From an uncultured Myxococcales bacterium (GTDB taxonomy: Bacteria > Myxococcota_A > UBA9160 > UBA4427), in NCBI GenBank assembly GCA_965603475.1, contig CBFDDD010000016.1, positions 75-64,074 of the forward strand: 64,000 nt of DNA, given 5' to 3'. The translations under genes were made by a program, and so were the position numbers. This document shows, piece by piece, positions 9,182 through 60,140 of the stretch; position 1 is the first letter of the stretch, and each line of letters starts with the position of its first letter. A model generated the notes under the pieces. That model was not told the DNA's origin. It ran no database searches and saw only the letters and a program-made list of their open reading frames with translations.

Positions 9182-10540
9182 ATGCGTGCCAAGCTCGTTC
9201 TGAGCGCGCTGTGTCTAGTGCTCCTCGTGAGACCCGCCTTCGCGCAGGACATGAGCACGGACCCTGCCGCTCCGGAGATGGAGTCCGTCCACAATCCCTA
9301 CCTGGGTATGGAACTCGATGGGCGCATTCCAAAGATCGACAAGTCTGTCTACGTCGATCGACCCGAACGGTGGCGTTATGTGCCCGAGGGCCGAATCAAG
9401 CCTGGTAATTTCTTTCAGCGCTTCCTCGTTTCGAGCTTCGTCGTCCCGCTGGTCTTCAGCAATTCCGATATTGGGACCGGATTCGGCCTGGCTCTGACCG
9501 ACATCGATTTTCGAAAACAGCGTCGGCGTGAGTTTCTCGGTGGTTTTTTCTCGTACACCACGAAAGGGCAACAGAGCTATGTGCTCAGGTGGCGCCGTTG
9601 GTTGAAGCATATGGATGTGCCGGGTGGGGGTGTCCTGCAAGAAGAGCGAAGCTACCTCCGGGCGGGTGGTGGTTACCGGAAGACGCTCACGCGGCGCTTT
9701 TTCGGCATTGGCCCAGCGACTGATGAAAGAGACGAAACCAGCTACACCGATGAGGTCGCCTTTCTCGATATCGGACTGTCCAGGTCGCTCGATGGCAAGC
9801 TAGACGATTTAATCGTCGAACTCGGACTGATCGCCGAGGGCCACCGTCTGGACGACGGCCATGTCGGCGGGGACCCCAACACCGAAGACGCATTCCCGAG
9901 GCTGTTTGGCGACGCGGACCGGATTGTATTGGGTTGGCTCAGCGGGGGGCTTCGATGGGACACCCGCGATAGTCAGAGAAACGCCTATCGGGGGACCGCC
10001 ATCGGTGCAAGAGTCGATGCGGCTCTCGGTCAGACCGATGGCAACGTCGGTGCGATCTATACCTTCTTCGCGGATCAGATTTTTCCGACCTGGCCACTCT
10101 TCCACTCTGGCGGAACCGACGACGAAGAGCATCCGCCGACCGACAGCATTGCCTTTCATTTCGAGAATCGGTTGAGCTCGGGTGATATCCCCTTTTTTGC
10201 TCGACCGAGTCTCGGCGGATCGCGAATTCTGCGTGGCTATATCGAGGGACGTTGGCGGGATGACGCGGTTTGGGCCGCGGTCGCCGAGTATCGATTCTGG
10301 TTCATTCCCCGTGGCTTCACGGTCTGGCGCCATATACGCGTCGAGCGCGTCGGTGCTGCCCTCTTCTACGAGGTGGGCGGCGTCGCGGAGGATGGCTTCG
10401 GGCTCTTCCATTCTGGCGTCTTGCAGAGCTATGGCGTGAGTGCGCGTGCCACGATCGAACGTGCGGCGCTCTTTCGGGCGGACTTCGGATTCTCGAAAGA
10501 GGGGTTCAATTTTTCTGCCGGTTTCGGGCTTTCGTTTTGA
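9182..10540 (+). CDS. Outer-membrane beta-barrel protein, Omp85/surface-antigen (D15)-like
   Basis: Signal peptide MRAKLVLSALCLVLLVRPAFA, the motif SLGGSRILRGY and an amphipathic beta-strand pattern. The C-terminus ...FSAGFGLSF ends in Phe. The ATG lies 1 nt after the gor stop. Confidence 0.7.
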   Translation: MRAKLVLSALCLVLLVRPAFAQDMSTDPAAPEMESVHNPYLGMELDGRIPKIDKSVYVDRPERWRYVPEGRIKPGNFFQRFLVSSFVVPLVFSNSDIGTGFGLALTDIDFRKQRRREFLGGFFSYTTKGQQSYVLRWRRWLKHMDVPGGGVLQEERSYLRAGGGYRKTLTRRFFGIGPATDERDETSYTDEVAFLDIGLSRSLDGKLDDLIVELGLIAEGHRLDDGHVGGDPNTEDAFPRLFGDADRIVLGWLSGGLRWDTRDSQRNAYRGTAIGARVDAALGQTDGNVGAIYTFFADQIFPTWPLFHSGGTDDEEHPPTDSIAFHFENRLSSGDIPFFARPSLGGSRILRGYIEGRWRDDAVWAAVAEYRFWFIPRGFTVWRHIRVERVGAALFYEVGGVAEDGFGLFHSGVLQSYGVSARATIERAALFRADFGFSKEGFNFSAGFGLSF

Positions 10541-23874: not shown

Positions 23875-24858
23875 ATGAGCCCCTCGAATCGCTATGCCGA
23901 TGATCGATCGATTCAGTCGAGGGATATTTCGAATTTCGTTCAGCTGCTGCGAGAATTTCTGACGGCGCATGCGGAGCTTCGCGGAATCTTCTCCGAGCAC
24001 GCGGAAGACAATATCCCCTTTGCGAAAATTCGGGCTCTGGTCGGCGACGATGATCGCGCTGTCCTGTTCCGGCTGAAACAAAAGAGCCACAAACTCTTTC
24101 GAGCCCATGGGATCGCTACGCGGGCCGTTCGGCGAGAAGCGCTCTTCGATCTTGCCGTGGGTTCGCTCTTTCACGAGGCGATGAAGCTTCGCGAGACGCT
24201 CTATCAACGCGAGGTCTACGCACCGCGGGTCGCATCACTGCGCGAAGCGGCGGACGAGGAATCGGACGAACTCTTCGATGAGTTCGATCGAATTCTAGAA
24301 AGCAGTGTGTCTCGACTGGGCGAGGTCGTCTCCGAAGTGCGAGCCCTGCTCGTTCAGACTCGAGATCAATTGCGACGTCTACTCGTCGAGCGTTCGGGGG
24401 ACAGGGTGGTCACGCGCTGTCTGCTGAGCCGCCGCGAACAGGTGGATGCCGTTTTCCCGGAGGGCTTCATGGGGGTCCTCGAGGCAATGCATGGCAACAC
24501 GGTCACGGGTCTCGTCGAAGGCGCTCGAGCGCTCCTCGAGAGCGCCTACTTCGAGGAAGCGGCCGACGCACTTCGCGAGGCGGGCCTGGATACCAATGCG
24601 CCGCGCGCCGAATTGGAACAACTCAGGCTCTACGCCAATGGTATGCAGGCCTTCCTGAACGGGGACTATGCGACGAGCATCGCAACGCTCGACGTCTGGG
24701 CCAATCTGGGCGCCCACGACCAGGAGCGGGATTTCGCGCGCCTGGCCGCGTCGGTTCTTGGTCGTCTCGGTCGACTCGTCGAAGACGACGAGGAGGGCGC
24801 CGCACTCGTGGATAGCGCCAAACAACTTCAGCTTCGACTGGAGTCAACCTCGGTGTGA
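23875..24858 (+). CDS. Hypothetical helical protein
   Basis: Consistent codon usage and a helical Leu/Glu/Arg-rich sequence. ATG 23875 is preceded by AGGAT. No motif recognised. Confidence 0.5.
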   Translation: MSPSNRYADDRSIQSRDISNFVQLLREFLTAHAELRGIFSEHAEDNIPFAKIRALVGDDDRAVLFRLKQKSHKLFRAHGIATRAVRREALFDLAVGSLFHEAMKLRETLYQREVYAPRVASLREAADEESDELFDEFDRILESSVSRLGEVVSEVRALLVQTRDQLRRLLVERSGDRVVTRCLLSRREQVDAVFPEGFMGVLEAMHGNTVTGLVEGARALLESAYFEEAADALREAGLDTNAPRAELEQLRLYANGMQAFLNGDYATSIATLDVWANLGAHDQERDFARLAASVLGRLGRLVEDDEEGAALVDSAKQLQLRLESTSV

Positions 24859-25598
24859 ACTGCTGAAGCCCCGCGAGCTCGAACGAGCAGAATCGCGCCG
24901 AAGAGAACAAGCCCAACGCCAATCCATTGCGCTTCGGAAAGATCGAGTGCGACGCGAGCATTCAGCCGCCAGTGTTCGACGACGGTGCGCCCGATGCCGT
25001 TCAGGATCAGATACTCGCCCATCAGTGAGGGGCTTTTCTTGCGTCTTTGCCACAGGTACAGGGTGACCAGGAAGAGCCAGGCGGACTCATAGATCTGGGT
25101 CGGATGGACTGCGTAGTAGACCGGCGGCAATCCCTGCGGAAACGCGATGCCCCACGGAAGATCTGTCGCGCGTCCATAGTCGTCGCCGACCAGGAGGCAG
25201 CCGATTCGCCCGATCGCCTGGCCGATCGCGAGCGAAATGGCGCAGGCATTTGCAAAGGCCACCACCGGGATCTTGTAGAATCGACAGCCGGCATAGCCCG
25301 CAAGCGCTCCGCCGATCAGCCCGCCGTAAAAAACCATGCCTGCCCGAGAAAAGAGGGAGGACCAGAATTCGGCTTCGCCACGCAATGAAAAATCGGTTGC
25401 GTAGTAGAGCTTGGCGCCGAGAACGCCGCCAAACATGATCCAGGTCAGCATGTTGGCAGCGTCGTCGGGGTCGAGACCCTCTTCGGACATCCGCGGAATC
25501 GCGATCCAATATCCGACCAGGAAAGCGACAGCCATCGCCGCACCAAAACTGCTGACCGGCCAATCTAGAAACGGAATTGTAAAGAGTTCCGGATACAT
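24828..25598 (-). CDS. lgt: Prolipoprotein diacylglyceryl transferase
   Basis: N-terminal MYPELFTIPFL, YGGLIGG and GRIGCLLVGDDYG; multi-TM. Confidence 0.9.
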   Translation of the reverse strand: MYPELFTIPFLDWPVSSFGAAMAVAFLVGYWIAIPRMSEEGLDPDDAANMLTWIMFGGVLGAKLYYATDFSLRGEAEFWSSLFSRAGMVFYGGLIGGALAGYAGCRFYKIPVVAFANACAISLAIGQAIGRIGCLLVGDDYGRATDLPWGIAFPQGLPPVYYAVHPTQIYESAWLFLVTLYLWQRRKKSPSLMGEYLILNGIGRTVVEHWRLNARVALDLSEAQWIGVGLVLFGAILLVRARGASAVHTEVDSSRS

Positions 25599-36120: not shown

Positions 36121-36951
36121 ATGACTGCCATGACCGGGGAGGCTGTCGTGAAGAGGCTTTCAATGAAGTTCGCTGGTTTAGTTCGTACAGAGCGAGCGCG
36201 AATGGCGCGTGTCGTCTTTCGGCCTGGCGCCATTTTGTCGACCGCAGTTCTGTTGGCCGCGTCCGGGGCCTATGCCGAGCCGGAGGCCGAACCGAAGGCG
36301 GAAACGGCGATCGAAGCAGGCGAGAAAGAATCGAGTTGTCCGGCGGGAGCTGGCGTGAACACGGCGAAGCTGATTCAGTCGCGATACGAGGGCATTCGAG
36401 ACATCCACGCGAATTTCGTGCAGACCAATGAATCTGCGACGTTCGCCGGGCAGCCCCTGATGGCGCCGGAGCCCAAGAGCGGTCGCGTCATCTTTGCCAA
36501 ACCTGGAAAGATGAGATGGTCCTATCTCTTGCCCGAGCCGAGCGTGGTTGTGTCGGACGGTCAGATCCTATGGATCTATGACGTCGATGGCGAGTCGATC
36601 ACTCGCCTCGAGGTCACAGCGGGCTACCTGAGCGGCGCCGCCCTCCAGTTCTTGCTTGGGGATGGTCAGATTCTCGAATCATTCGAGGTCGAGGCGACTG
36701 TCTGCGAGATGGACCACACCACGCTCGATCTGATTCCGAAGGCGGAGGCCACCTACGAGCGGCTGGGACTCGTGGCTGACCGTGTTTCGGGCGACATCGT
36801 CGCCACGTCGGTGCTCGATCTCCTCGGTAATCTGACCGAGATTCGATTCAGCGAGATCGAAGTCAATCGCGATCCCAAAGCCGAGACCTTCAAGCTCGAA
36901 ATTCCCGAGGGCGTAGAGGTCATCGATTACGCAGGTTCGCCCGACGACTGA
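36121..36951 (+). CDS. lolA: Outer-membrane lipoprotein carrier LolA; start uncertain (36163 and 36202 are alternatives)
   Basis: Signal peptide ...ILSTAVLLAASGAYA and LolA-type segments IHANFVQT, GKMRWSY and ILWIYD. The ftsK-lolA adjacency is common. Confidence 0.75.
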   Translation: MTAMTGEAVVKRLSMKFAGLVRTERARMARVVFRPGAILSTAVLLAASGAYAEPEAEPKAETAIEAGEKESSCPAGAGVNTAKLIQSRYEGIRDIHANFVQTNESATFAGQPLMAPEPKSGRVIFAKPGKMRWSYLLPEPSVVVSDGQILWIYDVDGESITRLEVTAGYLSGAALQFLLGDGQILESFEVEATVCEMDHTTLDLIPKAEATYERLGLVADRVSGDIVATSVLDLLGNLTEIRFSEIEVNRDPKAETFKLEIPEGVEVIDYAGSPDD

Positions 36952-37347
36952 GTCCCTCAGGCCGCAATCGATGGTCCTAGACCAGAAGCCAGAGGGGGCC
37001 ATGACGCTCAACGTCCCAATTCTCCTCGAAATTTGCGCCCCGAAATAGAATGCACGGCAGTCAGTGCGCATGTTCGAGCGGTGCAATCTCGACGATTTCG
37101 TCTAGATATCGGCAACTTTTGCGGCAGGATGCCTCCGCAGTTTGCACATCAGATTCTCGAAACCAGGCAATTCGATCTGGGTACTAACCAGAGTCTGTTA
37201 GCCAGAGTCTGCGGCGCGCGTGGTGAGCGTGCCTGAGGATGGGTGCGAGCGTGAATTCTGCACCGATTGGAGCCCAGGTGTTCGCAATCGAACGACGAAA
37301 CCATTCTAAAACAGGAGTTTATGAGGATCTCTGCATGCGAGTCCCGG

Positions 37348-37375
37348 TTGACACGATTTTTGCAGCCGATAAACT
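37348..37375 (+). promoter_or_regulatory. Sigma70-like promoter candidate inside the arc-upstream gap
   Basis: TTGACA (37348-53), a 16-nt spacer, then TAAACT (37370-75), in a locally AT-richer stretch. Confidence 0.35.
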
Positions 37376-37933
37376 GAAAAAGGCTGAAAAGGGCTTCAAA
37401 TTCGAGAGGTTCGACGTTTCATTCCAACCGATCGGGTCGTTATTGAATCGGCAGGGCTCAAAAGACAGGCTAGAGCGAGGGTCGGCGAGAATGGGTGGCC
37501 TTCCCTTCGAATCGGGGTCCCCGAATCGGAGGTTGCCATCGCGACGGTGCAATCTGCAGACCGCCTCTGGCCCCGCTTTCTTCGGGCTGGACGCGCCCTC
37601 GATCGGTGCACTTCAAAATCGATCGCGGAGTGCGCAACCCTCCGAATTCCCAACTCTTTTGTGTCGCCTCCCCGCTGGATCGAAAAGTCTGTTTGCCGCG
37701 GCGATTCGAATTGCGGAAGGTTGGGTCAGAAGAATCGGTTCCAATCCCCCCGGGTCGAAATCGAGAGATTCCGAAGTCCTCTTTCACGCAGAAGGCGGAC
37801 ACGATCTCTTGCCGAGCCGCCAATCAGCCAAATCAAGTGCGGCACAGCGCTTGCAGTATGGGTTGGGTGAGGGTTGGGATGACTGCTCGTTTCCGCAAGA
37901 ATCTGCGGGGCGAGACAACGAGGAGACGGCGTA

Positions 37934-39796
37934 ATGAGCGAACATGATTCGGACTCTTCCTCGGGCGCGGGACGCAAGGGATTCGTGCGCGACGTAATGC
38001 GGCGGATCACCCCTGCGGGCGGCCGACCGGGCGATGACCCGGAACTCGATCCGACTCGCCCGGCTGCGGGCGAACGGTCGGCGAGCGAGGCCGAACGACT
38101 GCAGGATGCGATGCGATTCTTTGGAAGTGACTCCAGCGAATTTCGCCACCGGCTCGATCGAATGCTGGCGGACTTCGAGACTTTGCGACGTCGCTATGAG
38201 CAGGCGCGAAGCCAGCATCACGACGCCGAGCGCCAGAACGAAAAGCTCGTCGCGATGCTCCAGGAAGCGAAGCAGCAGATCGAGCTTCTCAAGGAAGAGG
38301 TCGACAAGCTGTGCGCTCCGCCGAATAGCTACGGCATCTTCATCCGTGCGAACAAAGACGGCACTTCAGAGATCCTGATGGAAGGTCGGCCGATGCGGGT
38401 CAACGTTCATCCGAATCTCGATCCCTTCCAGCTGGACGAGGGGCAGTACGTCGTGCTGAACGAAGCCTTCAACATCATCGAAGGCGCCGAGTACACCCAG
38501 CGCGGCGAGGTCTGTACCGTCGTCGATTCGATCTCGGACAGTCGGGTGATCGTCAGCGGTCACACGGATGACGAACGGGTCGTGACGCTCTCTGAGCCGT
38601 TGCGTCGCGAACACATCAAGGTCGGTGATCCACTGATGGTGGATATGCGAACGCAATACGCGTTCGAGAAGCTGCCGAAGTCGTCGGTGGAAGAGGTCAT
38701 GCTCGAGGAAATCCCGGACGTGTCCTACGAGGATATCGGTGGGTTGGGCGATCAGATCGAAATCCTGCGTGATTCGGTCGAATTGCCCTATCTGCACCCG
38801 GAGGTCTTTTCGGATCACAAGCTCCGGCCGCCCAAGGGCATCTTGCTCTATGGCCCGCCGGGATGTGGCAAGACCCTGATTGCCAAGGCGGTGGCGAATA
38901 GCCTTGCCAAGCGCATCGAAAATGAAACCGGCAAGACGACGACCGCCTACTTCCTGAACGTGAAGGGTCCCGAGCTCCTGAACAAGTACGTCGGCGAGAC
39001 CGAGAGCAAGTTGCGCGACGTCTTCAAGAAGGCCCGCGAGAAGGCGAGCGAGGACGTTCCGGTCGTCGTGTTCTTCGACGAGATGGATTCGCTCTTCCGG
39101 ATGCGCGGATCGGGGATTTCCTCGGACATGGAAGCAACCGTGGTGGCTCAGTTCCTGTCGGAGATCGACGGCGTCGAAGCACTCGAGAACGTCATCGTCA
39201 TCGGAGCGAGCAATCGGCAGGATCTGATTGATCCTGCGGTACTCCGCCCGGGACGCCTGGATCTGAAGGTCAAGGTATCCCGACCGGACCGCGATGCGGC
39301 ACGCGATATCTTCAAGAAATACCTGACGCCGGATCTGCCACTGCACGAGGACTCGGTCAGCAGGTACGGCAACGATACCGACTCGGCCTGCTCGAGAATG
39401 ATCGATAACGTCATCGAGAACATGTACTCGACCGGCGACGAGAACAAGTTCCTCGAGGTGACGTACGCCAAGGGTGAGCGAGAGATTTTCTACTTCAAGG
39501 ATTTCGCCTCGGGCGCAATGCTCGAAAATATTGTCGCGCGTGCCAAGCGAAAGGCGGTCAAGCGTCTCATCGATGGTGGGGAGCGTGGCATCACGGCGGA
39601 CGACCTGATCCAATCCGTGCGGGAGGAGTTCAAGGAGAACGAGGACCTCCCCAATACCACGAATCCGGACGACTGGGCGCGCATCTCCGGACGAAAGGGT
39701 GAGCGAATCATCAACGTTCGAACGCTCATTACCGGAATGGAACGCAATGAACAGACCATCGAGAACGTCTCGAGCGGTCAGGGTCAGTACCTCTAG
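37934..39796 (+). CDS. arc: Proteasome-associated AAA+ ATPase (ARC/Mpa)
   Basis: N-terminal coiled coil (RRYEQARSQHHDAERQNEKLVAMLQEAKQQIELLKEEVDKL) followed by an OB region. Walker A GPPGCGKTLIAKA and Walker B VVFFDEMDS. The C-terminus ...GQGQYL carries the proteasome-docking GQYL motif. Confidence 0.9.
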   Translation: MSEHDSDSSSGAGRKGFVRDVMRRITPAGGRPGDDPELDPTRPAAGERSASEAERLQDAMRFFGSDSSEFRHRLDRMLADFETLRRRYEQARSQHHDAERQNEKLVAMLQEAKQQIELLKEEVDKLCAPPNSYGIFIRANKDGTSEILMEGRPMRVNVHPNLDPFQLDEGQYVVLNEAFNIIEGAEYTQRGEVCTVVDSISDSRVIVSGHTDDERVVTLSEPLRREHIKVGDPLMVDMRTQYAFEKLPKSSVEEVMLEEIPDVSYEDIGGLGDQIEILRDSVELPYLHPEVFSDHKLRPPKGILLYGPPGCGKTLIAKAVANSLAKRIENETGKTTTAYFLNVKGPELLNKYVGETESKLRDVFKKAREKASEDVPVVVFFDEMDSLFRMRGSGISSDMEATVVAQFLSEIDGVEALENVIVIGASNRQDLIDPAVLRPGRLDLKVKVSRPDRDAARDIFKKYLTPDLPLHEDSVSRYGNDTDSACSRMIDNVIENMYSTGDENKFLEVTYAKGEREIFYFKDFASGAMLENIVARAKRKAVKRLIDGGERGITADDLIQSVREEFKENEDLPNTTNPDDWARISGRKGERIINVRTLITGMERNEQTIENVSSGQGQYL

Positions 39797-39905
39797 GATC
39801 GATCAAGAACTCTCCAGATCAGCCTGAGCGAGTCGGCGGACTCCGGGGCGGGATGCACGAGCACCGGCCCGCCGATTCGACAGGCTGGGGAGAAACGAAG
39901 GCAAG

Positions 39906-41390
39906 ATGGCGATTCCGACTGTCATGGGAACTGAAATCGAGTTTGGGATCATGGTCAAGAACGATCCTGACTTCGACCCGATCTCGTCGTGCGTCCTGAT
40001 CGTGAATGCGTATCGCGAAGACCCGGACGGACAGATCCTCTGGGACTACGATCAGGAGAATCCGCTCGCCGACGCACGTGGTTTCCAGGTGGAAGGCGAA
40101 AAGTACACGCCGAACCAACAGGAAAACATTGCCCGCAACAAGACGCTCATCAATGGCGCGCGCTACTACGTCGATCACGCCCATCCGGAATATTCTTCGC
40201 CTGAAGTGACGAATGCACGCGACCTCGTGATTCACGAGAAGGCCGGTGAACGCGTGATTGAGATCAGCCGTCGAGAAGCCAACAATCTGTTGCCCGAAGG
40301 GGCGGAGATGTTGATCTACAAGAACAACAGCGACCGAAAGGGCAACAGCTACGGATGTCACGAGAACTATTTGATGGATCGCCGAACGTCCTTCAAGAAG
40401 GTCGTGGAGCCGCTCCTGCCATTTTTCTCGACACGACAGATCTGGTGTGGTGCCGGAAAAGTAGGTAGCGAGAGCCGCAATCATCCGTGTGACTATCAGC
40501 TTTCCCAGCGCGCAGATTTCTTCGAGACGGAAGTCGCGTTGGACACGATGGTCAAGCGGCCGATCGTGAACACGCGAGACGAACCTCATGCGGACCGAGA
40601 GAAGTACCGGAGGCTCCACGTCATCGTGGGGGACTCCAACATGTCGGAGTTCACGATCTATCTGCGCAACGGTGTGACGGCGCTGATTCTCTCCATGATC
40701 GAGGACGGTGCAATCTCGAAGGATTTGACGCTACGCGATCCAGTTCGATCGATTCGCGAGGTTTCGCACGACCTCTCTCTCCGAAACGAGCTGACGATGG
40801 ACGACGGCAGCGCGCGAACAGCACTCCAGATCCAGGAGGATTTTCTGGAGATGGCCCTCGCATATACCTCTTCACGTTCTCTCGATCCGGTCCAGAAGGA
40901 CGTTCTGCAGAAATGGCAGGACGTCATCGAGGCGCTTGGTCGAGATCCGATGGAACTCGACGGAAAGATCGATTGGGTGATCAAGAAGCGCCTGATCGAG
41001 CGTTATATGAGTCGAAAGAGCCTCGATTGGAGCGATCCACAGGTTCAAATGCTCGATCTCCAGTACCACGACTCACGACCGGACAAGGGGCTCTACTATC
41101 TTTTGGAGCGCCAGGGAAAGGTCGAGAGAATCGTTTCGGACGAAGAGATTCAACACGCGGTGTACAATCCGCCGAGGGATACGCGTGCCTTCTTCCGTGG
41201 TGAATGTCTACGTCGATATCCGAGCGAGGTCTTCGGTGTGAATTGGGATTCGATTTCGTTCGGACTCGGAGACGAGTCGATCAAGCGAATCATGATGGCG
41301 GAGCCTTTGAAGGGTACAAGTGAATTTGTCGAGGAGCTGCTCGAGCGGTCGGACACGGCTGCGGCGCTCCTCGAGAACATGGGCTCCTGA
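39906..41390 (+). CDS. dop: Pup deamidase/depupylase Dop
   Basis: Its N-terminal MGTEIEFGI and ARYYVDHAHPEYSSPE mark the carboxylate-amine ligase fold shared with PafA. It carries the extra loop (DYDQENPLADARGFQVEGEKYTPNQQENIARNK) that is absent from the downstream paralog. It also sits immediately upstream of pup. Confidence 0.85.
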   Translation: MAIPTVMGTEIEFGIMVKNDPDFDPISSCVLIVNAYREDPDGQILWDYDQENPLADARGFQVEGEKYTPNQQENIARNKTLINGARYYVDHAHPEYSSPEVTNARDLVIHEKAGERVIEISRREANNLLPEGAEMLIYKNNSDRKGNSYGCHENYLMDRRTSFKKVVEPLLPFFSTRQIWCGAGKVGSESRNHPCDYQLSQRADFFETEVALDTMVKRPIVNTRDEPHADREKYRRLHVIVGDSNMSEFTIYLRNGVTALILSMIEDGAISKDLTLRDPVRSIREVSHDLSLRNELTMDDGSARTALQIQEDFLEMALAYTSSRSLDPVQKDVLQKWQDVIEALGRDPMELDGKIDWVIKKRLIERYMSRKSLDWSDPQVQMLDLQYHDSRPDKGLYYLLERQGKVERIVSDEEIQHAVYNPPRDTRAFFRGECLRRYPSEVFGVNWDSISFGLGDESIKRIMMAEPLKGTSEFVEELLERSDTAAALLENMGS

Positions 41391-41454
41391 AGCCGCCGTT
41401 CGATCGATGATTTCGATCGGCGGTTGTGTCGGGACCAGTCCGGAGGACTAAACG

Positions 41455-41754
41455 ATGGCGACATTTATCAGAGATCTGAAGCGTGTACGATCCGGCGGCT
41501 ACGCCGACCGGCAGGTCGGCGGACAGGCCGATCCAATCCCGCTGTATATGGCCGCTGGCGAACAGAAGCAAAAGAGCAAGGGTGGCGGTGGCGATGACGG
41601 AGATGGCGAGAAGGACGAGGGCGGTCAGAAACTCGCCGAGAAGGGCGAGGACCTCAAGGAGGAGATGGACGATCTCCTCGAGGAGATCGATTCCGTCCTC
41701 GAAGAGAACGCCGAAGAGTTCGTCAAGAATTACGTCCAGCGAGGCGGCGAGTAG
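41455..41754 (+). CDS. pup: Prokaryotic ubiquitin-like protein Pup (99-aa reading; canonical-length 68-aa form would start at ATG 41548)
   Basis: The C-terminal LLEEIDSVLEENAEEFVKNYVQRGGE closely resembles actinobacterial Pup. GGAGGA (41442-47) lies 7 nt upstream of ATG 41455, whereas no SD precedes ATG 41548. Confidence 0.85.
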   Translation: MATFIRDLKRVRSGGYADRQVGGQADPIPLYMAAGEQKQKSKGGGGDDGDGEKDEGGQKLAEKGEDLKEEMDDLLEEIDSVLEENAEEFVKNYVQRGGE

Positions 41755-41812
41755 ATTAGCGGGAGAGTTGAGTACCCGTTTGATGGATTGATTGTTTTCT
41801 GAGGGGGGAACA

Positions 41813-42604
41813 GTGCCGCTTCGAGGCAGCTACGACGGTTCAAGTTTCTTCGAGCTTCTTCAGCTCGAACAAAGACATCTTCTTCCGGATCTTTCCGCCT
41901 GGGGAAAAGGTACGGCCGAGATGGTGCCGCACGGGACGACTGTCCTGGCCATGCGTTTTGGGGACGGTGTCCTCGTGGCTGGCGATCGGCTTGCGACGGC
42001 GGGGCATTCGGTGGCTTCGCGCGACGTCGTCAAGGTATTTGAGACCGACCCGTATTCAGTGATGGCGATCTCGGGCGCGGCAGGTCCGTGTATCGAGATG
42101 GCGCGTGTGCTTTCGGTCGAGCTCGAACACTACGAGAAGATCGAGGGCGAGCAGCTCGAACTCGAAGGCAAGGCCAATAAACTTTCACAGATGATTCGCG
42201 CGAATCTGCCGGCCGCCATGCAAGGGCTCGCGGTCGTGCCTCTTTTTGCGGGCTACGACATGCGCCGCAAGACCGGGCGTCTCTGGAAGTTCGATATTAC
42301 GGGTGGTCGCTACGAGGAAACGGAGTTCGACGCGACGGGTTCCGGCGGGCTCTACGCTCGGGAATCGCTGAAGCATGGCTGGGACGCGAATCTCCGGCGC
42401 GACGATGCGGTCCGAATCGCGGTCGCCGCGCTGACTGCCGCCGCCGACGAGGATCGCGCGACCGGGGGTGTCGATCTCGAGCGCGGGATCTATCCCGTGA
42501 TCAAGGTCTGTACGATCGAGGGTCAGACCGACGCGAGCGAAGAAGAGATCGCCACTTGTTACCGCAGTATTCTGGAGGCTCGTGCCGCCGGGGGAAATCT
42601 CTAA
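41813..42604 (+). CDS. prcB: 20S proteasome beta subunit PrcB (with propeptide)
   Basis: Propeptide ending ...VPHG, then catalytic TTVLAMRFGDGVLVAGD. GTG 41813 has GAGGGGGG upstream. Confidence 0.9.
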   Translation: MPLRGSYDGSSFFELLQLEQRHLLPDLSAWGKGTAEMVPHGTTVLAMRFGDGVLVAGDRLATAGHSVASRDVVKVFETDPYSVMAISGAAGPCIEMARVLSVELEHYEKIEGEQLELEGKANKLSQMIRANLPAAMQGLAVVPLFAGYDMRRKTGRLWKFDITGGRYEETEFDATGSGGLYARESLKHGWDANLRRDDAVRIAVAALTAAADEDRATGGVDLERGIYPVIKVCTIEGQTDASEEEIATCYRSILEARAAGGNL

Positions 42605-43302
42605 TGTCGATGCCCTTCTACGTTTCTCCTGAGCAAGTCATGGCCGACAAGGCCGAGTTCGCGCGCAAGGGAATTGCGCGTGGCAAATCGATCGTCGCGA
42701 TCGAGCATCAGAACGGCATCTTGTTGGTCGCCGAGAACGCGACGAGTCTTTCGAAGGTCGGCGAGATCTACGATCGAATCGCCTTTGCGGGCGTTGGGAA
42801 ATTCAGCGAGTTCGACCAGCTGAGAAAAGTGGGTGTGCGCTTCGCGGATACCAAGGGGTATGCGTACAGTCGTGAGGACGTGCGCGGACGGGGCCTTGCC
42901 AATGCGTTCTCCCAGGTCATGGGGGAGGTCTTCACGCGTGAGATCAAACCGCTCGAGATCGAGATCATCGTTGCCGAAGTCGGCGACGATCGATACGACG
43001 ATCACAAGAAGAACACGATTTATCGAGTGAAATACGATGGGTTCATCAGCGATCACCCGGGCTACTGTGTGATTGGCGGAAACGTCGAGGACGTCGAATC
43101 CGTGCTGAAGGACGAGTATCGCGATGACATGCCCGCGGGGGAAGCACTCAAGCTCGCACGGCGCGCGCTCAATTCGGGAGCAGAACGCAGTTCTGAATTG
43201 GGCGTAGAGAGTCTCGAAGTCTGTCTACTGGATCGGATTCGAACGGGTCGCAAGTTCTGCCGCCTTTCTACCGAAGAAGTTCAAGGTATGCTGGACGCTT
43301 GA
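42604..43302 (+). CDS. prcA: 20S proteasome alpha subunit PrcA
   Basis: MSMPFYVSPEQVMADKAEFARKGIARGKS. The ATG overlaps the prcB stop (TAATG). Confidence 0.9.
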   Translation: MSMPFYVSPEQVMADKAEFARKGIARGKSIVAIEHQNGILLVAENATSLSKVGEIYDRIAFAGVGKFSEFDQLRKVGVRFADTKGYAYSREDVRGRGLANAFSQVMGEVFTREIKPLEIEIIVAEVGDDRYDDHKKNTIYRVKYDGFISDHPGYCVIGGNVEDVESVLKDEYRDDMPAGEALKLARRALNSGAERSSELGVESLEVCLLDRIRTGRKFCRLSTEEVQGMLDA

Positions 43303-43354
43303 GAAGGCGCATTGTGTGTCTTTCTAAGCCTCGCAGAAGCGGTCAGGCGGCTTT

Positions 43355-44761
43355 GTGCAAAAGCGCATTTATGGCATCGAGACCGAGTATGGAATCATAT
43401 TCACACCGGAGGGCCGCAAGACCCTGCCCGTGGAGAAGGCCATTCGCTTTCTCTTCGAGAAGCTGATCACGACCGAACATTTCCTCAACGTCTTTCTCGA
43501 GAACGGCGCCCGTTTCTATCAGGACACCGGTTGCCATCCCGAGTACGCGACGCCGGAATGCGCCTCGCCCAGCCAACTCATCATCTACGACAAGGCCGGT
43601 GAGCGAATCCTCGAAGATCTCCAGATCTATGCGGAGGAGAAGATTCGTGAAGAGCGTATCCCCGGAAAGCTTTCGATCTTCAAGAATAACACCGACTTCG
43701 TAGGCAATAGCTACGGCTGCCACGAGAATTATCTCGTCGACCGGGATGTCGATTTCTATTACCTCGCGGAGCAGCTGATCCCGTTTCTCGTGACTCGCCA
43801 GATCTACACGGGTGCGGGCAAGGTCTTTCAGACACAGGACGGCGTTCACTACTGCGTGAGCCAACGTGCACAGCACATCTACCAGAAGATCTCGGGAACG
43901 ACGACCAACGATCGGTCCATCATCAATACTCGAGACGAGCCTCATGCCGATCGCGAGAAATATCGACGGCTCCACGTGATCGTCGGTGACTCCAACATGA
44001 GCGAGTACACCAATTTCATCAAGGTCGGAACCTGCTCCGTCGTGCTCCAGATGATCGAGGACAACTACATCAACAAGGACTTCACGCTTCGCAATCCGGT
44101 CAAGGCGATCAAGGACATCACCTATGACTCGACCTGCAAGCGACGTCTGCGACTCGACAATGGACGCGAATACTCACCGATCGAAATTCAGCGCGAATAC
44201 TGCGAAATGGCTCAGAAATACATCGAGCAGTATCCCGTCATGGACGACCACAAGAAGGCCGTCATCATGTGGCAGTACGTACTGGACAGCCTGGATAGCG
44301 ATCCGAACAAACTCGATCGTCAGATCGATTGGGTGATCAAGCGGAAGCTGATTCAGTCCTGGATCGATAAACACGAAACGACCTGGACCGATCCGCGTGT
44401 GTTGATGCTTGATCTCCAGTACCACGATATCCGACGTGAACGAAGCCTCTACTATCTGCTGGAGAGGAAAGGTGCGGTAGATCGCCTGTTCACCGACGAA
44501 GAAGTCGACGCCGCAAAGACCGAGCCGCCGCAAGATACGCGCGCTCGAATGCGCGGCGAATTCATCAAGCTCGCTCGGGAGAACTCGATCCAATACGATC
44601 TCGACTGGTCGAATATTCGCCTCGGCAACCTTCTGAACGTGCGCGTGATCTGTAACAATCCCTTCGAAACCGACACAGAGAAGGTCGCCGAGTTGGTACG
44701 CACGATTCAGAAGACCAATCTGCGCAAGACGAGCCTTTCGAAGCTCGTCATCCAGTCCTAG
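43355..44761 (+). CDS. pafA: Pup-protein ligase PafA
   Basis: VQKRIYGIETEYGI, ARFYQDTGCHPEYATPE, NSYGCHENYL and RRLHVIVGDSNMSE. It lacks the Dop-specific loop. Confidence 0.85.
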   Translation: MQKRIYGIETEYGIIFTPEGRKTLPVEKAIRFLFEKLITTEHFLNVFLENGARFYQDTGCHPEYATPECASPSQLIIYDKAGERILEDLQIYAEEKIREERIPGKLSIFKNNTDFVGNSYGCHENYLVDRDVDFYYLAEQLIPFLVTRQIYTGAGKVFQTQDGVHYCVSQRAQHIYQKISGTTTNDRSIINTRDEPHADREKYRRLHVIVGDSNMSEYTNFIKVGTCSVVLQMIEDNYINKDFTLRNPVKAIKDITYDSTCKRRLRLDNGREYSPIEIQREYCEMAQKYIEQYPVMDDHKKAVIMWQYVLDSLDSDPNKLDRQIDWVIKRKLIQSWIDKHETTWTDPRVLMLDLQYHDIRRERSLYYLLERKGAVDRLFTDEEVDAAKTEPPQDTRARMRGEFIKLARENSIQYDLDWSNIRLGNLLNVRVICNNPFETDTEKVAELVRTIQKTNLRKTSLSKLVIQS

Positions 44762-44772
44762 TCGAGCTCGGA

Positions 44773-45201
44773 ATGCCTCCCTCAGACCCGTCTGCGCCTG
44801 AAGAGGATGAGACAGTCGGCTTGAAGCTGGTGAACACGACATCGGAATCCGGGACCTCTTCGGACACGTCAGACCCACAGAGTTCGACACCCGACGGAGG
44901 TTCGGCCGAACCGCGAAGCGACCGACGCAGACTACCTGTCTGGCTCTTCGTGCTCGTCCTGATCCTCTTTTTCCTCGTGATCGGCAGGCAGGTCCAGCTC
45001 GCGAGCGAACTCGAATCCCAGGTGGCCGGCCTCGAAGTCCAGCTCGAGCGGACGAACGCGCTTCTCGACTCCCATCGCACGCATCTCTCCGAGGTTCGTG
45101 GAGGAGTGCACGAGCTCTCAGAGCGTCTCCAGAGCCTCCGCGCTCTCGTGGATCGTGACCCGACCGGCCGGGTCTCCGAAGGCGTCGTGCCGGCCCCGTA
45201 G
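44773..45201 (+). CDS. Hypothetical single-pass membrane coiled-coil protein
   Basis: Starts 11 nt after the pafA stop. It has an acidic Ser/Thr-rich N-terminus, the TM LPVWLFVLVLILFFLVIG, then a heptad-like QVQLASELESQVAGLEVQLERTNALLDSH... Confidence 0.55.
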   Translation: MPPSDPSAPEEDETVGLKLVNTTSESGTSSDTSDPQSSTPDGGSAEPRSDRRRLPVWLFVLVLILFFLVIGRQVQLASELESQVAGLEVQLERTNALLDSHRTHLSEVRGGVHELSERLQSLRALVDRDPTGRVSEGVVPAP

Positions 45202-50126: not shown

Positions 50127-50759
50127 TCATTCGGGGGAGAGTGCTGCGAGCGCGAGCCCGACCGCCATCTCCATATCCCCATCGATCTCGATCTGCCCGT
50201 CGAGAAAGGCATCCTGGGGATCGAGTTCTCCTGCCCGAAGTCGTCCGTAGACTGCTTCGTCGAGTCGAATTGTCGCGCGTGGTTCGGGCTCGGACGTCTC
50301 GATACCGAACGACGCGACGAGCGCGAACCCCCCCGGCCCAACGCGCTCGAAGACGAGACATCCGTCGAGTTCTCGTAGGCTGCGGACTCGCTGGGATGTA
50401 AGGCGCATTTCATCGCCGAGACCGGCCAACCCGCCCAGGAAGCCGAGCAGCGAATCTCCGCATTCACGTCGGATACTCGGGAAGTCTTCGAGCGTATGGC
50501 CCAGAATCAGAAAGGGTGCGCCAGTGGGTGCGTCTACGCATCGCATCTCGCCGCGATCGATCTCGTAGGCATGACGATGAAGCGCGTCGCCGCTGTCGAC
50601 CTGAACGATGATCGCGGTTCGAACCGCTTCCATTTCCTCGAGCAGCCGTGCCGCAGCGGGATCGTCGCGCGCGGCCGCACGCTGGCTTTCCAGGGTACGG
50701 TTGAACTGTTCCGGAACGCGTTCTCGGTAAAAGACCTGCTGCTCCTCGAGAAGGTTCAT
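50127..50759 (-). CDS. SCP2 (sterol-carrier-like) domain protein
   Basis: The C-terminal ...YGRLRAGELDPQDAFLDGQIEIDGDMEMAVGL resembles an SCP2 fold. The start overlaps the mltG stop. Confidence 0.55.
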   Translation of the reverse strand: MNLLEEQQVFYRERVPEQFNRTLESQRAAARDDPAAARLLEEMEAVRTAIIVQVDSGDALHRHAYEIDRGEMRCVDAPTGAPFLILGHTLEDFPSIRRECGDSLLGFLGGLAGLGDEMRLTSQRVRSLRELDGCLVFERVGPGGFALVASFGIETSEPEPRATIRLDEAVYGRLRAGELDPQDAFLDGQIEIDGDMEMAVGLALAALSPE

Positions 50760-51763
50760 CGTCGACGTCGTCTGCGTTGGAACTGGTCGACCGCCGCTTT
50801 GTGTTCCACGTAGGTCTTCGAAAAAACATGTGTGCCGTCGTTGCGGGATACGAAATACAGGTAGGCCGTATCCGCAGGCTCGAGCACAGCTTGCAGCGCT
50901 TCTCGACCCGGGCTGGCGATCGGGCCGGGCGGCAGTCCGCGGATCCGATAGGTGTTGTAGGGATTGCTGTCGTCCTTCAGGTGTATGCGTCGCAAGTTCC
51001 CGTCGAAGTCCTGGATGCCATAGATCACTGTCGGATCGGTCTCGAGACGCATTCCACGCTTCAGGCGATTCAGAAAGACTGCGGCGATCAGGGGACGCTC
51101 TTCCACTGCGCCCGTTTCCTTCTCGACGATCGAGGCCAACGTGACGAATTCGCGCATCGAGAGCGGAGAGTCGCCCGGTCCGAGGTCGCGATAGACGCGC
51201 AAGAACTCCTCGACCATCGCCTCTGCGATCCGCTCCGGGGGGAGACCGCGCGAGAAGCGGTAGGTATCGGGATAGAGGTATCCCTCGAGACTCGAGCCCT
51301 CGACACCCAGTCGAATGGGTGTCTCCGGGTCGAAGACGACGTCGAGAAACGCCTCGCGATCGGCGAGACCAGCGGCTGCGAGCCGATCGGCGATCTCGCT
51401 GGCCCGCTGGCCCTCCGGAATCACGACGGCGTGTGTGCGGACTCGACCCTGCGCGAGGGTTTCGAGGATTTGCTTCGTGGATTGCGCGGCAGAGAGCTCG
51501 TACTCGCCAACCTTGATCCGTGAAGACAGATCCTCGGCCTCAGCGAACCAACGGGTCACTTTCGCGTTCCGGATCAGGCCCTTCGCTTCGAGTGCGTTGA
51601 CCACACGCGTGAGCGAGTCACCCGGCTCGACTTCGAATGCGACAAGGCTCGCTTGCCCTCCGTCTTCCTCGACCGGGGCGAGTGAGCGCTGAACCCAGAG
51701 CCATCCACCGGCGGCAAGGATGATTCCGCCGACCGCGGCACGGACCAACGCCTTTCTCATCAT
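50756..51763 (-). CDS. mltG: Endolytic murein transglycosylase MltG (YceG-like)
   Basis: TM anchor MMRKALVRAAVGGIILAAGGWLWV, ASIVEKETGAVEERPLIAAVFLNRL and YNTYRIRGLPPGPIASPG. ATG at 51763. Confidence 0.85.
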   Translation of the reverse strand: MMRKALVRAAVGGIILAAGGWLWVQRSLAPVEEDGGQASLVAFEVEPGDSLTRVVNALEAKGLIRNAKVTRWFAEAEDLSSRIKVGEYELSAAQSTKQILETLAQGRVRTHAVVIPEGQRASEIADRLAAAGLADREAFLDVVFDPETPIRLGVEGSSLEGYLYPDTYRFSRGLPPERIAEAMVEEFLRVYRDLGPGDSPLSMREFVTLASIVEKETGAVEERPLIAAVFLNRLKRGMRLETDPTVIYGIQDFDGNLRRIHLKDDSNPYNTYRIRGLPPGPIASPGREALQAVLEPADTAYLYFVSRNDGTHVFSKTYVEHKAAVDQFQRRRRRR

Positions 51764-51785
51764 CGAAATCGACTCCAGGCTCGCA

Positions 51786-52244
51786 TCAACGGGAACGCTC
51801 GTCGCCGTTTCGGTTCGCGCTGTCCAGCGTACGTCGAGCAAGATAGGTACGCAAAATGATAGAGGCCGCCATTTCATCCACGGCACCCTTCTTTCGTCTC
51901 TTGGCGCCACGCTTTCCCGAAGCGGGTTGCAGTAGTCGCTCCGCCTCTCGAGACGTCCAACGTTCGTCGAGGGTATCGACCGGAATTTCGGCGGCCTTAC
52001 TCAGATCCGCGGCGAATCGGATCGCCTTCTCCGCTTCGGGACCGCGGCGGCCGTCCATGTGAATCGGGAGACCCAGGACCGCTCGGCCGATCTGCTTTTC
52101 GACGATCAATTCACGAAGCGCGTCGATATCCCGCTTCCGCCCGCGGCTATCCAGTATCCCAGCGGGAAACGCGAACTCCTCTTCCTCGTCGGAGATCGCG
52201 AGTCCGATTCGTTTGCTGCCAAGATCGACGCCGAGTACACGCAC
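51786..52244 (-). CDS. ruvX: Putative pre-16S rRNA nuclease / Holliday-junction resolvase-like RuvX (YqgF)
   Basis: VRVLGVDLGSKRIGLAISD...PVDTLDERWTSREAE. GTG 52244 is in frame. The upstream 213 codons of the ORF look non-coding. Confidence 0.8.
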   Translation of the reverse strand: MRVLGVDLGSKRIGLAISDEEEEFAFPAGILDSRGRKRDIDALRELIVEKQIGRAVLGLPIHMDGRRGPEAEKAIRFAADLSKAAEIPVDTLDERWTSREAERLLQPASGKRGAKRRKKGAVDEMAASIILRTYLARRTLDSANRNGDERSR

Positions 52245-58943: not shown

Positions 58944-60140
58944 ATGGAACTCAACGAGATCTTGAAGGTCGCCATCAAGGGCGGCGCATCCGACATCCAT
59001 CTGAAATCGGGATTGCCTCCGATGTTCCGGGTCGATGGTGCGCTCGTACCGCTGAAGAATGGCGAGCGGGTCCTTCCCGACGAACTCCAGAAGATTGCCT
59101 TCTCGATCATGAATCCGCTTCAAAAGGCACGCTTCGATGAGAACCGTGAGGCCGATCTGGCTTACGGCATTCCCGGGCTAGGCCGCTTCCGTGTGAACTG
59201 TTTTCAGCAGCGCGGAACTGTGGGCATCGTCTTTCGTGTGATCCCGTTTGGCGTCAAGACGATCGAGCAGCTCTATCTGCCCAAGATCATCGAGAAAATT
59301 GCGCAGGAGCAGCGCGGACTGGTTCTGGTAACAGGTACGACGGGCTCGGGTAAGTCGACGACCCTGGCCGCGATGATCGAATACATCAACTCCGAGCGAA
59401 CCAGCCACATCATGACGATCGAGGATCCGATCGAGTTCCTGGTTCGCGATCGGCGATCGATCGTGAACCAGCGCGAGATCGGCGTCGATACGCATACCTT
59501 CTCGGCGGCTCTTCGAGCTGCGCTGCGCCAGGACCCGGATGTGATTCTGGTGGGCGAGATGCGCGATTTCGAGACGATCGAAACCGCCATGACGGCGGCC
59601 GAGACGGGCCATCTCGTCATGAGCACGCTGCATACGCTCGATGCAACGGAGACGATCAATCGAATCATTTCGGTCTTCCCGCCCTACCAGCAGAAGCAGG
59701 TGCGACTGCAACTCTCGACGATCCTGAAGGCCGTGATCAGTCAGCGTTTGGTTCCGCGCGCCGATGGGAAGGGCCGAGTTCCGGCCCTCGAGGTACTGGT
59801 CTCCACGGCGTTTACGCGCGAACTGATTGGGGACAAGGATCGGACCAAGGAGCTGCCCGATGCGATTTCGAAGGGCCATACGACCTACGGAATGCAGACC
59901 TTCGATCAATCGTTGATGGGTCACGTCAAATCAGGACTGGTCTCCTACGAAGAGGCTCTCAAGCACGTCTCCAATCCGGACGACTTCGCGCTTCGATTTC
60001 GCGGGATCGAGTCGACCTCGGACTCGGAATGGACGGACTTTGCCAGTGAGGGCGAGGGCGGCGATGCATCCGAAAAAAAGCCGGAGAATGATGGCGTCGA
60101 CGGTCTGGACGAAGACGACTTCAATATCGACCGATTCTAG
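58944..60140 (+). CDS. pilT: Type IV pilus retraction ATPase PilT (with acidic C-terminal extension)
   Basis: Walker A GTTGSGKSTTLAAMI, IMTIEDPIEF, ILVGEMRD and TGHLVMSTLHT. Confidence 0.9.
   Translation: MELNEILKVAIKGGASDIHLKSGLPPMFRVDGALVPLKNGERVLPDELQKIAFSIMNPLQKARFDENREADLAYGIPGLGRFRVNCFQQRGTVGIVFRVIPFGVKTIEQLYLPKIIEKIAQEQRGLVLVTGTTGSGKSTTLAAMIEYINSERTSHIMTIEDPIEFLVRDRRSIVNQREIGVDTHTFSAALRAALRQDPDVILVGEMRDFETIETAMTAAETGHLVMSTLHTLDATETINRIISVFPPYQQKQVRLQLSTILKAVISQRLVPRADGKGRVPALEVLVSTAFTRELIGDKDRTKELPDAISKGHTTYGMQTFDQSLMGHVKSGLVSYEEALKHVSNPDDFALRFRGIESTSDSEWTDFASEGEGGDASEKKPENDGVDGLDEDDFNIDRF

Follow-up and report, generated by a model that had tools for sequence, protein, structure and literature searches.

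A predicted Pup-proteasome operon at a single chromosomal site in the Myxococcota class UBA9160

We analyzed a 64-kb stretch of DNA from an uncultured bacterium of the Myxococcota (contig CBFDDD010000016.1; "the window" below is this whole stretch, to which all coordinates refer) and found that positions 37934 to 44761 hold a complete set of genes for a Pup-proteasome system (PPS), all on the plus strand. As judged from sequence, the module has every defining feature of such a system, and it is fixed and vertically inherited at one site in the class to which the host belongs. We consider it, with a probability of roughly 85%, to be a functional, chromosomally fixed PPS operon that entered the stem lineage of the class and has since been passed on by vertical descent, always at the same site between lolA and mreB. 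Throughout, "class" means UBA9160 of Myxococcota_A, an assignment made from the titles of the closest public metagenome-assembled genomes (MAGs): the nearest relatives of Dop, with 68-94% identity, come from MAGs titled Deltaproteobacteria bacterium UBA4427, Myxococcota bacterium and similar, and the genus UBA4427 has been placed in class UBA9160 (proposed name "Vahlivitia") of Myxococcota_A (bioRxiv 10.64898/2026.07.10.737566).

The six genes and their products

Six intact, co-directional open reading frames (ORFs) were called in the order arc-dop-pup-prcB-prcA-pafA, with spacings of 109, 64, 37, -1 and 52 nt from arc through to pafA. A preliminary description of this DNA, made from the letters alone, had reported six core components on a single strand with short gaps, and both the ORF calls and the Pfam and NCBIfam profiles agree with it; the profile search that it proposed recovered Pup, Pup_ligase (twice), Proteasome (twice) and AAA domains. 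The overlap of prcB and prcA that it had read as TAATG is present at 42602-42606, where the prcB stop codon TAA (42602-42604) shares a letter with the prcA start codon ATG (42604-42606). Two gene calls were corrected, as prcA starts at 42604 and pup is the 99-codon ORF from 41455, not a gene of the canonical ~68 residues. Five of the six proteins exceed the equivalog cut-off of their NCBIfam model, PafA being the exception.

The first gene, arc or mpa (37934-39796), encodes a predicted proteasomal AAA+ unfoldase of 620 aa that scores 748 bits against TIGR03689 (pup_AAA; cut-off 504.75) and contains, in addition to the AAA domain, both proteasomal-ATPase OB domains (PF17758, PF16450) and a coiled-coil region. 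Walker A (GPPGCGKT), Walker B (FFDEMD) and the pore-loop KYVG are legible in the sequence, and residues 86-620 align to Mpa of Mycobacterium tuberculosis through to the last residue (651 bits). The C-terminus reads GQGQYL, and the GQYL tail noted earlier is thus present in the alignment as well as in the letters.

The two paralogues of the Pup-ligase family (PF03136) are dop and pafA, whose products match the family at 574 and 507 bits, respectively. The dop gene (39906-41390) encodes a predicted depupylase of 494 aa, the deamidase-type paralogue, which scores 573.6 bits against TIGR03688 (cut-off 492.3); its residues 5-489 align gap-free, loop region included, to Acidothermus Dop (4B0R) at 49.8% identity. 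The alignment of the two paralogues starts at Dop 78 and PafA 45, so that Dop has some 33 residues more than PafA. The statement that only the first paralogue carries the Dop loop is borne out by both of these alignments. The pafA gene (43355-44761) encodes a putative Pup ligase of 468 aa without this loop, identified with TIGR03686 and by a full-length alignment to PafA of Corynebacterium glutamicum (4B0T; 357 bits, 40.7% identity) in which the catalytic-region motif RxYxDxGxHPEYATxE is kept; against the Dop model it reaches only 413 bits. PafA is unusually conserved. Across the class, its sequences are 83-97% identical to that of the window, while PrcA falls to 49%, and the mean pairwise p-distances among class loci (PafA, 0.111; MreB, 0.164; Dop and ARC, 0.24; PrcA and PrcB, 0.35) place it below even MreB.

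The 20S core particle is represented by prcB (41792-42604) and prcA (42604-43302), the predicted beta and alpha subunits, which score 293 bits against TIGR03690 (cut-off 192) and 290 bits against TIGR03691 (cut-off 139). PrcB has a propeptide of 48 residues, and the mature beta chains of Rhodococcus and M. tuberculosis align from residue 49, straight after HG. This places the processing site at HG|TTV, as had been proposed, with T49 as the first residue of the mature chain; Thr1, Asp17 and Lys33 are all legible in the sequence.

The tag itself is encoded by pup (41455-41754), whose 99-aa product ends in QRGGE and matches PF05639 over residues 36-99 (64.7 bits, cut-off 27) and TIGR03687, the model of the Pup C-terminus (60.3 bits, cut-off 41.45). 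The canonical Pup core starts at residue 32 (position 41548) and is preceded by about 31 conserved residues (MATFIR...PIPLY). A Shine-Dalgarno sequence, GGAGGA, is located 7 nt before the ATG at 41455, and among 120 distinct Pups of the class a similar sequence lies ahead of the extended start in 103, the N-terminal extension is found in 100, and a Met at the canonical start occurs in 34. The motifs M-A-R/T-F-I and L-P-I/L-Y are kept within the extension. The conservation of the extension, the Shine-Dalgarno sequence before the extended start and the scarcity of a canonical Met together argue that the extension is translated. A start at the internal ATG at 41548, giving a protein of 68 aa, was rejected in favor of 41455 on the Shine-Dalgarno sequence and the comparison of class Pups. 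In about 20 loci of the class, Pup has the canonical length of ~68 residues, and two other uncultured lineages carry unrelated Pup extensions of similar length, in Pups of 85 and 98 aa.

The C-terminus of Pup varies within the class, with GGE in 77 and GGQ in 49 of 127 loci. As the Pup of the window ends in GGE, it would need no prior deamidation, and the occurrence of both endings within one class suggests that the need for a deamidase step by Dop has switched repeatedly.

Distribution, vertical descent and origin

The diderm markers LolA, Lgt and Omp85/BamA, together with the MAG relatives, identify the host as a diderm outside the Actinobacteria. In this respect the preliminary description, which had argued for an outer-membrane-bearing organism and had considered an actinobacterial contig as the case that would speak against it, was correct: the host is a diderm member of the Myxococcota. 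Several MAGs with the same locus have been deposited as Spirochaetaceae or Spirochaetales; the synteny that they share with Myxococcota-labelled genomes suggests that these labels are wrong.

The Pup-ligase family PF03136 is present in 40 of 41 close relatives, and Dop was found in 148 of the 151 class genomes sampled, which cover 13 families and all but one of 72 genera (71/72). A sample of 301 genomes from the whole phylum included 58 of the class, of which 56 have a bona fide Dop, and 243 of other classes, of which none has one. Weak, partial matches of ~120 bits, in ORFs of 545-640 aa, were obtained from eight of these latter genomes and probably represent the membrane-inserted ligase of the Plesiocystis type discussed below. 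Some genomes of the class, though not that of the window, carry extra tandem paralogues of the Pup-ligase family (~250-310 bits, ORFs of 530-1500 aa).

The gene order arc-dop-pup-prcB-prcA-pafA is identical in every public contig long enough to tell, and in public genome and metagenome contigs the operon constantly lies between radC-ftsK-lolA and mreB. The same lolA-gap-arc and pafA-mreB junctions occur in more than 70 independent assemblies, closed chromosomes included. At 52 loci, the module proteins and FtsK plus MreB diverge in parallel, as their pairwise distances are correlated (Mantel r = 0.83, p = 0.001), and this correlation exceeds that between FtsK and MreB themselves (0.41). The operon is thus fixed in the class and vertically inherited at one site. 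In four class loci, an insertion of 1-3 kb separates prcA from pafA, and these are the sole breaks in contiguity that were seen.

The affiliation of the system beyond the class was approached through Dop. The best 120 matches in the protein homologue search are all members of the class. Among the representatives of 50%-identity clusters, the best match outside the class is a cluster holding a Dop of "Candidatus Entotheonellia" (58% identity), and further full-length matches outside the class do not exceed 49% identity, two of them being Acidimicrobiia Dops at 44-46%. For PafA, the representative that is sister to the class stands for a cluster with Ca. Moduliflexus flocculans among its members. 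A Dop tree was calculated with IQ-TREE under LG+C20 with posterior mean site frequencies and rooted on PafA, with representatives of 50%-identity clusters (1.84 billion searched) as outgroups, which were labelled via their cluster members. In this tree the class forms a clade (support 99) that joins the Entotheonellia-like lineage and three unlabelled metagenomic lineages (96) in a common clade with support 94. A separate clade (98) holds all eight labelled Actinomycetota, namely two Acidimicrobiia, Acidothermus, Micrococcales, an Actinomycetota MAG, Lawsonella, Bifidobacteriaceae and Raineyella. The comparison of Dop with actinobacterial sequences, which had been proposed at the outset, accordingly places the class outside the labelled Actinomycetota. 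Two of the unlabelled lineages have the same compact six-gene order with other flanks and no sigma-54 motif, and their ARC and PafA are 59-62% and 63-66% identical to those of the window. The Entotheonellia-like dop is solitary, between RraA-like and thioredoxin-like genes, and no arc, pup, prcBA or pafA was detected near it on contigs reaching up to 7-9 kb from dop; a small ORF that follows it was considered as a possible Pup and turned out to be the signal-peptide end of the thioredoxin-like protein. These data are best read as an ancient acquisition by the stem lineage of the class, with a PPS lineage outside the crown Actinobacteria as donor and vertical descent thereafter; the direction and the age of this transfer we infer.

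Three other explanations were weighed against an acquisition at the stem of the class. The system might be ancestral to the phylum or older still and have been lost in all other classes, and its class-wide presence, which speaks for its age, would fit this, as would the distant Pup-ligase-family homologue kept by the eight genomes of other classes. With no bona fide Dop in any of the 243 genomes outside the class, such a scenario requires many independent and complete losses; in addition, the nearest relatives of Dop and PafA belong to other phyla (Ca. Entotheonellia, Ca. Moduliflexus) and not to other Myxococcota, and we therefore regard an ancestral system as improbable.

An idea raised in the preliminary description fares worse, namely that the compactness of the module would suit a transferable cassette, which in its strict form would be a mobile element recently received from Actinobacteria. 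The six genes do lie close together on a single strand, the system is known chiefly from Actinobacteria, a transfer from these to other phyla has been proposed (PMC7947786, PMC3511204), and the total GC content of dop, prcA and pafA (0.54-0.56) is below the background of 0.605. However, the GC content at third codon positions (0.68-0.77 in the module) is at the background of 0.689 +/- 0.034, and so is synonymous codon usage, with distances of 0.058-0.091 for the module genes versus 0.069 +/- 0.017 for the 39 other genes of the window; the lower total GC content thus reflects amino-acid composition, and the comparison of GC and codon usage with the flanks suggested in that description revealed no deviation. 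Pfam scans of the flanking ORFs found no integrase or transposase family, identity to the actinobacterial anchor proteins is merely 40-50%, and the module falls outside the labelled Actinomycetota in the Dop tree. Together with the near-universal presence at a single conserved site and the co-divergence with flanking housekeeping genes, this makes a recent cassette very unlikely, and a module common and vertically inherited in the host lineage, which the same description had named as the finding that would overturn its view, is what we obtained. Finally, an artefact of assembly or binning, by which an actinobacterial fragment was joined at 36.9-37.9 kb, might be suspected because lolA and arc are roughly 1 kb apart with no credible gene in between, but both junctions recur in the independent assemblies and closed chromosomes, there is no break in composition, and the gap carries promoter elements conserved in relatives, so that we give a chimeric join at this position, about which the preliminary description had cautioned, practically no weight.

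Promoters, flanks and a candidate seventh gene

At 37840-37855, 79 nt upstream of the arc start codon, the plus strand carries the sequence CGGCAC-AGCGC-TTGCA, a sigma-54-type promoter element with the characteristic -24 GG and -12 GC, which was identified by motif scan and class-wide conservation. Nowhere else in the 64-kb window does YGGCAY-N5-TTGCW match (0.11 matches expected). Of 109 loci, 93 have the motif at a distance of 60-160 nt ahead of arc; every one of these belongs to the class, and the 11 compact operons outside the class lack it (0/11). As rpoN is encoded in the same genome (contig C21), it might be hypothesized that a sigma-54-type promoter drives the operon.

A further conserved, non-coding block lies on the plus strand at 37256-37420 in the gap between lolA and arc and precedes the sigma-54 element by about 480 nt. 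It was recognized by alignment of relatives, and its membership in the operon is uncertain. The block is 69-75% identical in 12 relatives of the same genus, to which its conservation is limited, and the remainder of the gap does not align. Within it, a sigma-70-like promoter, TTGACA-16-TAAACT, is located at 37348-37375, ~550 nt upstream of arc, preceded by a GTTC-N6-GAAC palindrome; the promoter scan gave 10 matches out of 12. The block might serve as an additional promoter, as an enhancer site or as the promoter of a small RNA. An Rfam scan of the whole window at gathering thresholds gave no match. A 231-codon ORF at 37239-37934 was rejected as a gene, since it has no Pfam match and only its first ~55 codons, which overlap with the promoter-like block, are conserved. 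Sites resembling terminators are no more frequent within the operon than in shuffled sequence.

Downstream, a candidate seventh gene (44773-45201, plus strand) begins 11 nt after pafA. Its product of 142 aa has an N-terminus of low complexity, a single transmembrane helix and a conserved coiled coil with the motif ...AH..HL..VR..V..L, and no Pfam match was found for it. A hidden Markov model built from 12 orthologues places this small gene right behind pafA in 58 of 79 class loci, with a median offset of 14.5 nt; in some relatives of the same genus the gap between pafA and mreB is too short for it. We consider that this membrane coiled-coil gene probably belongs to the operon.

With regard to the wider surroundings, the window scan confirmed four of the genes named in the preliminary description, lolA (36121-36951), lgt (24828-25598, minus strand), mltG (YceG/MltG; 50756-51910, minus strand) and a gene for a PilT-like ATPase of the T2SSE family (58944-60140). 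The Omp85-type barrel that it had also listed corresponds to only a weak match at 9182-10540, and the genome also has a strong Omp85/BamA match. FtsK, AlaS, MreB and a class II ribonucleotide reductase are encoded in the window as well. On contig C24 of the same genome (39500-45000) lies trmFO-xerC-hslV-hslU, and HslVU thus coexists with the 20S proteasome.

Predicted function and relation to known systems

We infer the biochemistry of the system, as well as its transcription as an operon, from homology to the actinobacterial proteins. By this analogy, PafA would use ATP to activate the gamma-carboxylate of the C-terminal Glu of Pup by phosphorylation and join it to lysines of the substrates, and Dop, as the depupylase, would strip off and recycle Pup. 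A hexamer of ARC is expected to grip Pup with its N-terminal coiled coils and to unfold and thread Pup together with the substrate through its pore, with the GQYL tail docking to the PrcA ring, and Thr1 of PrcB, freed by removal of the propeptide at HG|TT, would then cut the substrate. The six genes, and probably the gene for the 142-aa coiled-coil protein, would form one transcription unit, and the putative sigma-54 promoter may render expression dependent on a signal conveyed by an enhancer-binding protein.

Several points weigh against this picture of the operon and its history. PafA scores 550.4 bits against TIGR03686 and thus remains 0.9 bit below the cut-off of 551.3. The sigma-54 promoter could be matched with neither an activator nor an enhancer site, the flanking ORFs beside the operon include no activator, and a second conserved promoter, which is sigma-70-like, lies upstream of arc. 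With respect to origin, the approximately unbiased (AU) test rejects a grouping of the class-containing clade with the Acidimicrobiia representatives (p = 0.003), but this group was picked after the tree had been viewed, which weakens the test; moreover, the tree carries few taxon labels, and labelled Nitrospirota, Nitrospinota and Verrucomicrobiota are missing from it.

The closest known counterpart is the actinobacterial PPS, as represented by M. tuberculosis, the Rhodococcus 20S particle, Acidothermus Dop and C. glutamicum PafA. It has the same six components in the same relative order, and shares the OB domains, the AAA domain and the GQYL end of ARC, the Dop loop in Dop only, and the propeptide and Thr1 of the beta subunit. 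Similarly, the region of the C-terminal helix of Pup, EENAEEFVKNYVQRGGE, is nearly identical to the Pfam and TIGRFAM Pup models, which are built on actinobacterial Pups. The genes described here reside in a diderm host of the Myxococcota and are fully contiguous, whereas M. tuberculosis has mpa and pafA apart from dop-pup-prcBA. Further differences are the absence of pafBC after pafA, where the small membrane coiled-coil ORF is located instead, the sigma-54-type promoter, the Pup extension of ~31 residues, and the identity of only 40-50% that Dop and PafA show to the anchor proteins. Actinobacteria have been described to possess proteasomes beside Clp, FtsH and Lon "but not HslUV" (PMC3511204), unlike the genome analyzed here, in which HslVU is encoded alongside the 20S proteasome. 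The gene order of the PPS is known to be rigidly conserved (Barandun et al. 2012, PMC3511204), and as two other lineages have the same order as the class, its compactness is not special to the class.

Outside the Actinobacteria, PPS loci have been reported from Leptospirillum (Nitrospirae) and sporadically from Verrucomicrobia, Nitrospinae, NC10, Armatimonadetes and draft genomes assigned to "Proteobacteria" (PMC2588565, PMC3511204, PMC7947786). An origin from Acidimicrobiales has been proposed for the PPS of Leptospirillum (PMC3511204), and transfer from Actinobacteria for the sporadic systems in draft genomes of several phyla, Proteobacteria among them (Hecht et al. 2020, PMC7947786). These loci of Gram-negative hosts resemble ours in that the genes for Pup, the proteasome and two ligase paralogues are neighbors. 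In contrast to their sporadic occurrence, ascribed to actinobacterial transfer, the system described here is class-wide, and the AU test rejects its grouping with the sampled Acidimicrobiia. The preliminary remark that pupylation is only sporadically known outside Actinobacteria is therefore in line with the literature and understates the situation here, where a whole class carries the system.

Pupylation-type genes have also been described in nitrospirae, planctomycetes, verrucomicrobia and deltaproteobacteria, in the latter as the Plesiocystis type, which lacks a proteasome (Iyer et al. 2008, PMC2588565). This Plesiocystis/Rhodopirellula type is of relevance as the only pupylation-type system earlier tied to a myxobacterium; it has no proteasome genes and a ligase with four inserted transmembrane segments (PMC2588565), whereas PafA and Dop of the class are soluble and accompanied by a 20S proteasome. 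A literature search retrieved no paper linking pupylation with Myxococcota, none linking the PPS with Entotheonella or Moduliflexus, and none linking sigma-54 with pupylation in a biological sense.

A Pup homologue of Gram-negative bacteria was reportedly named UBact by Lehmann et al. in 2017. The tag described here resembles UBact in being a small protein with a C-terminal Gln or Glu, encoded beside PafA/Dop-type enzymes and proteasome genes in diderms. As it matches PF05639 and TIGR03687 and ends in GG[E/Q], we file it as Pup and not as UBact. Public annotation pipelines already label the genes of these loci Dop or PafA2. The present findings extend a known system to a new host lineage and do not describe a new mechanism. 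A more far-reaching possibility, which we put forward only tentatively and consider rather doubtful, is that the PPS of the class is not an actinobacterial import but an old separate branch, together with Ca. Entotheonellia, Ca. Moduliflexus and others, and that it has a biology of its own, in which a sigma-54 promoter would act with its activator, the Pup extension would be functional as a pro-sequence or as a modulator of ARC engagement, and the membrane coiled-coil protein would serve as a partner.

In reviews, pupylation and bacterial proteasomes figure as a feature of Actinobacteria that turns up only sporadically in other groups; the present locus adds an entire class of diderm Myxococcota, abundant and known to us from no culture, in which the complete system is kept. 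The class-wide retention and the conservation of PafA suggest that the system may be indispensable, or nearly so, in a very different type of cell. The class also provides a natural comparison set for the variable parts of the system, namely the N-terminus of Pup, its GGE or GGQ ending, the type of promoter and the accessory genes, and may render the origin of bacterial proteasomes slightly more testable.

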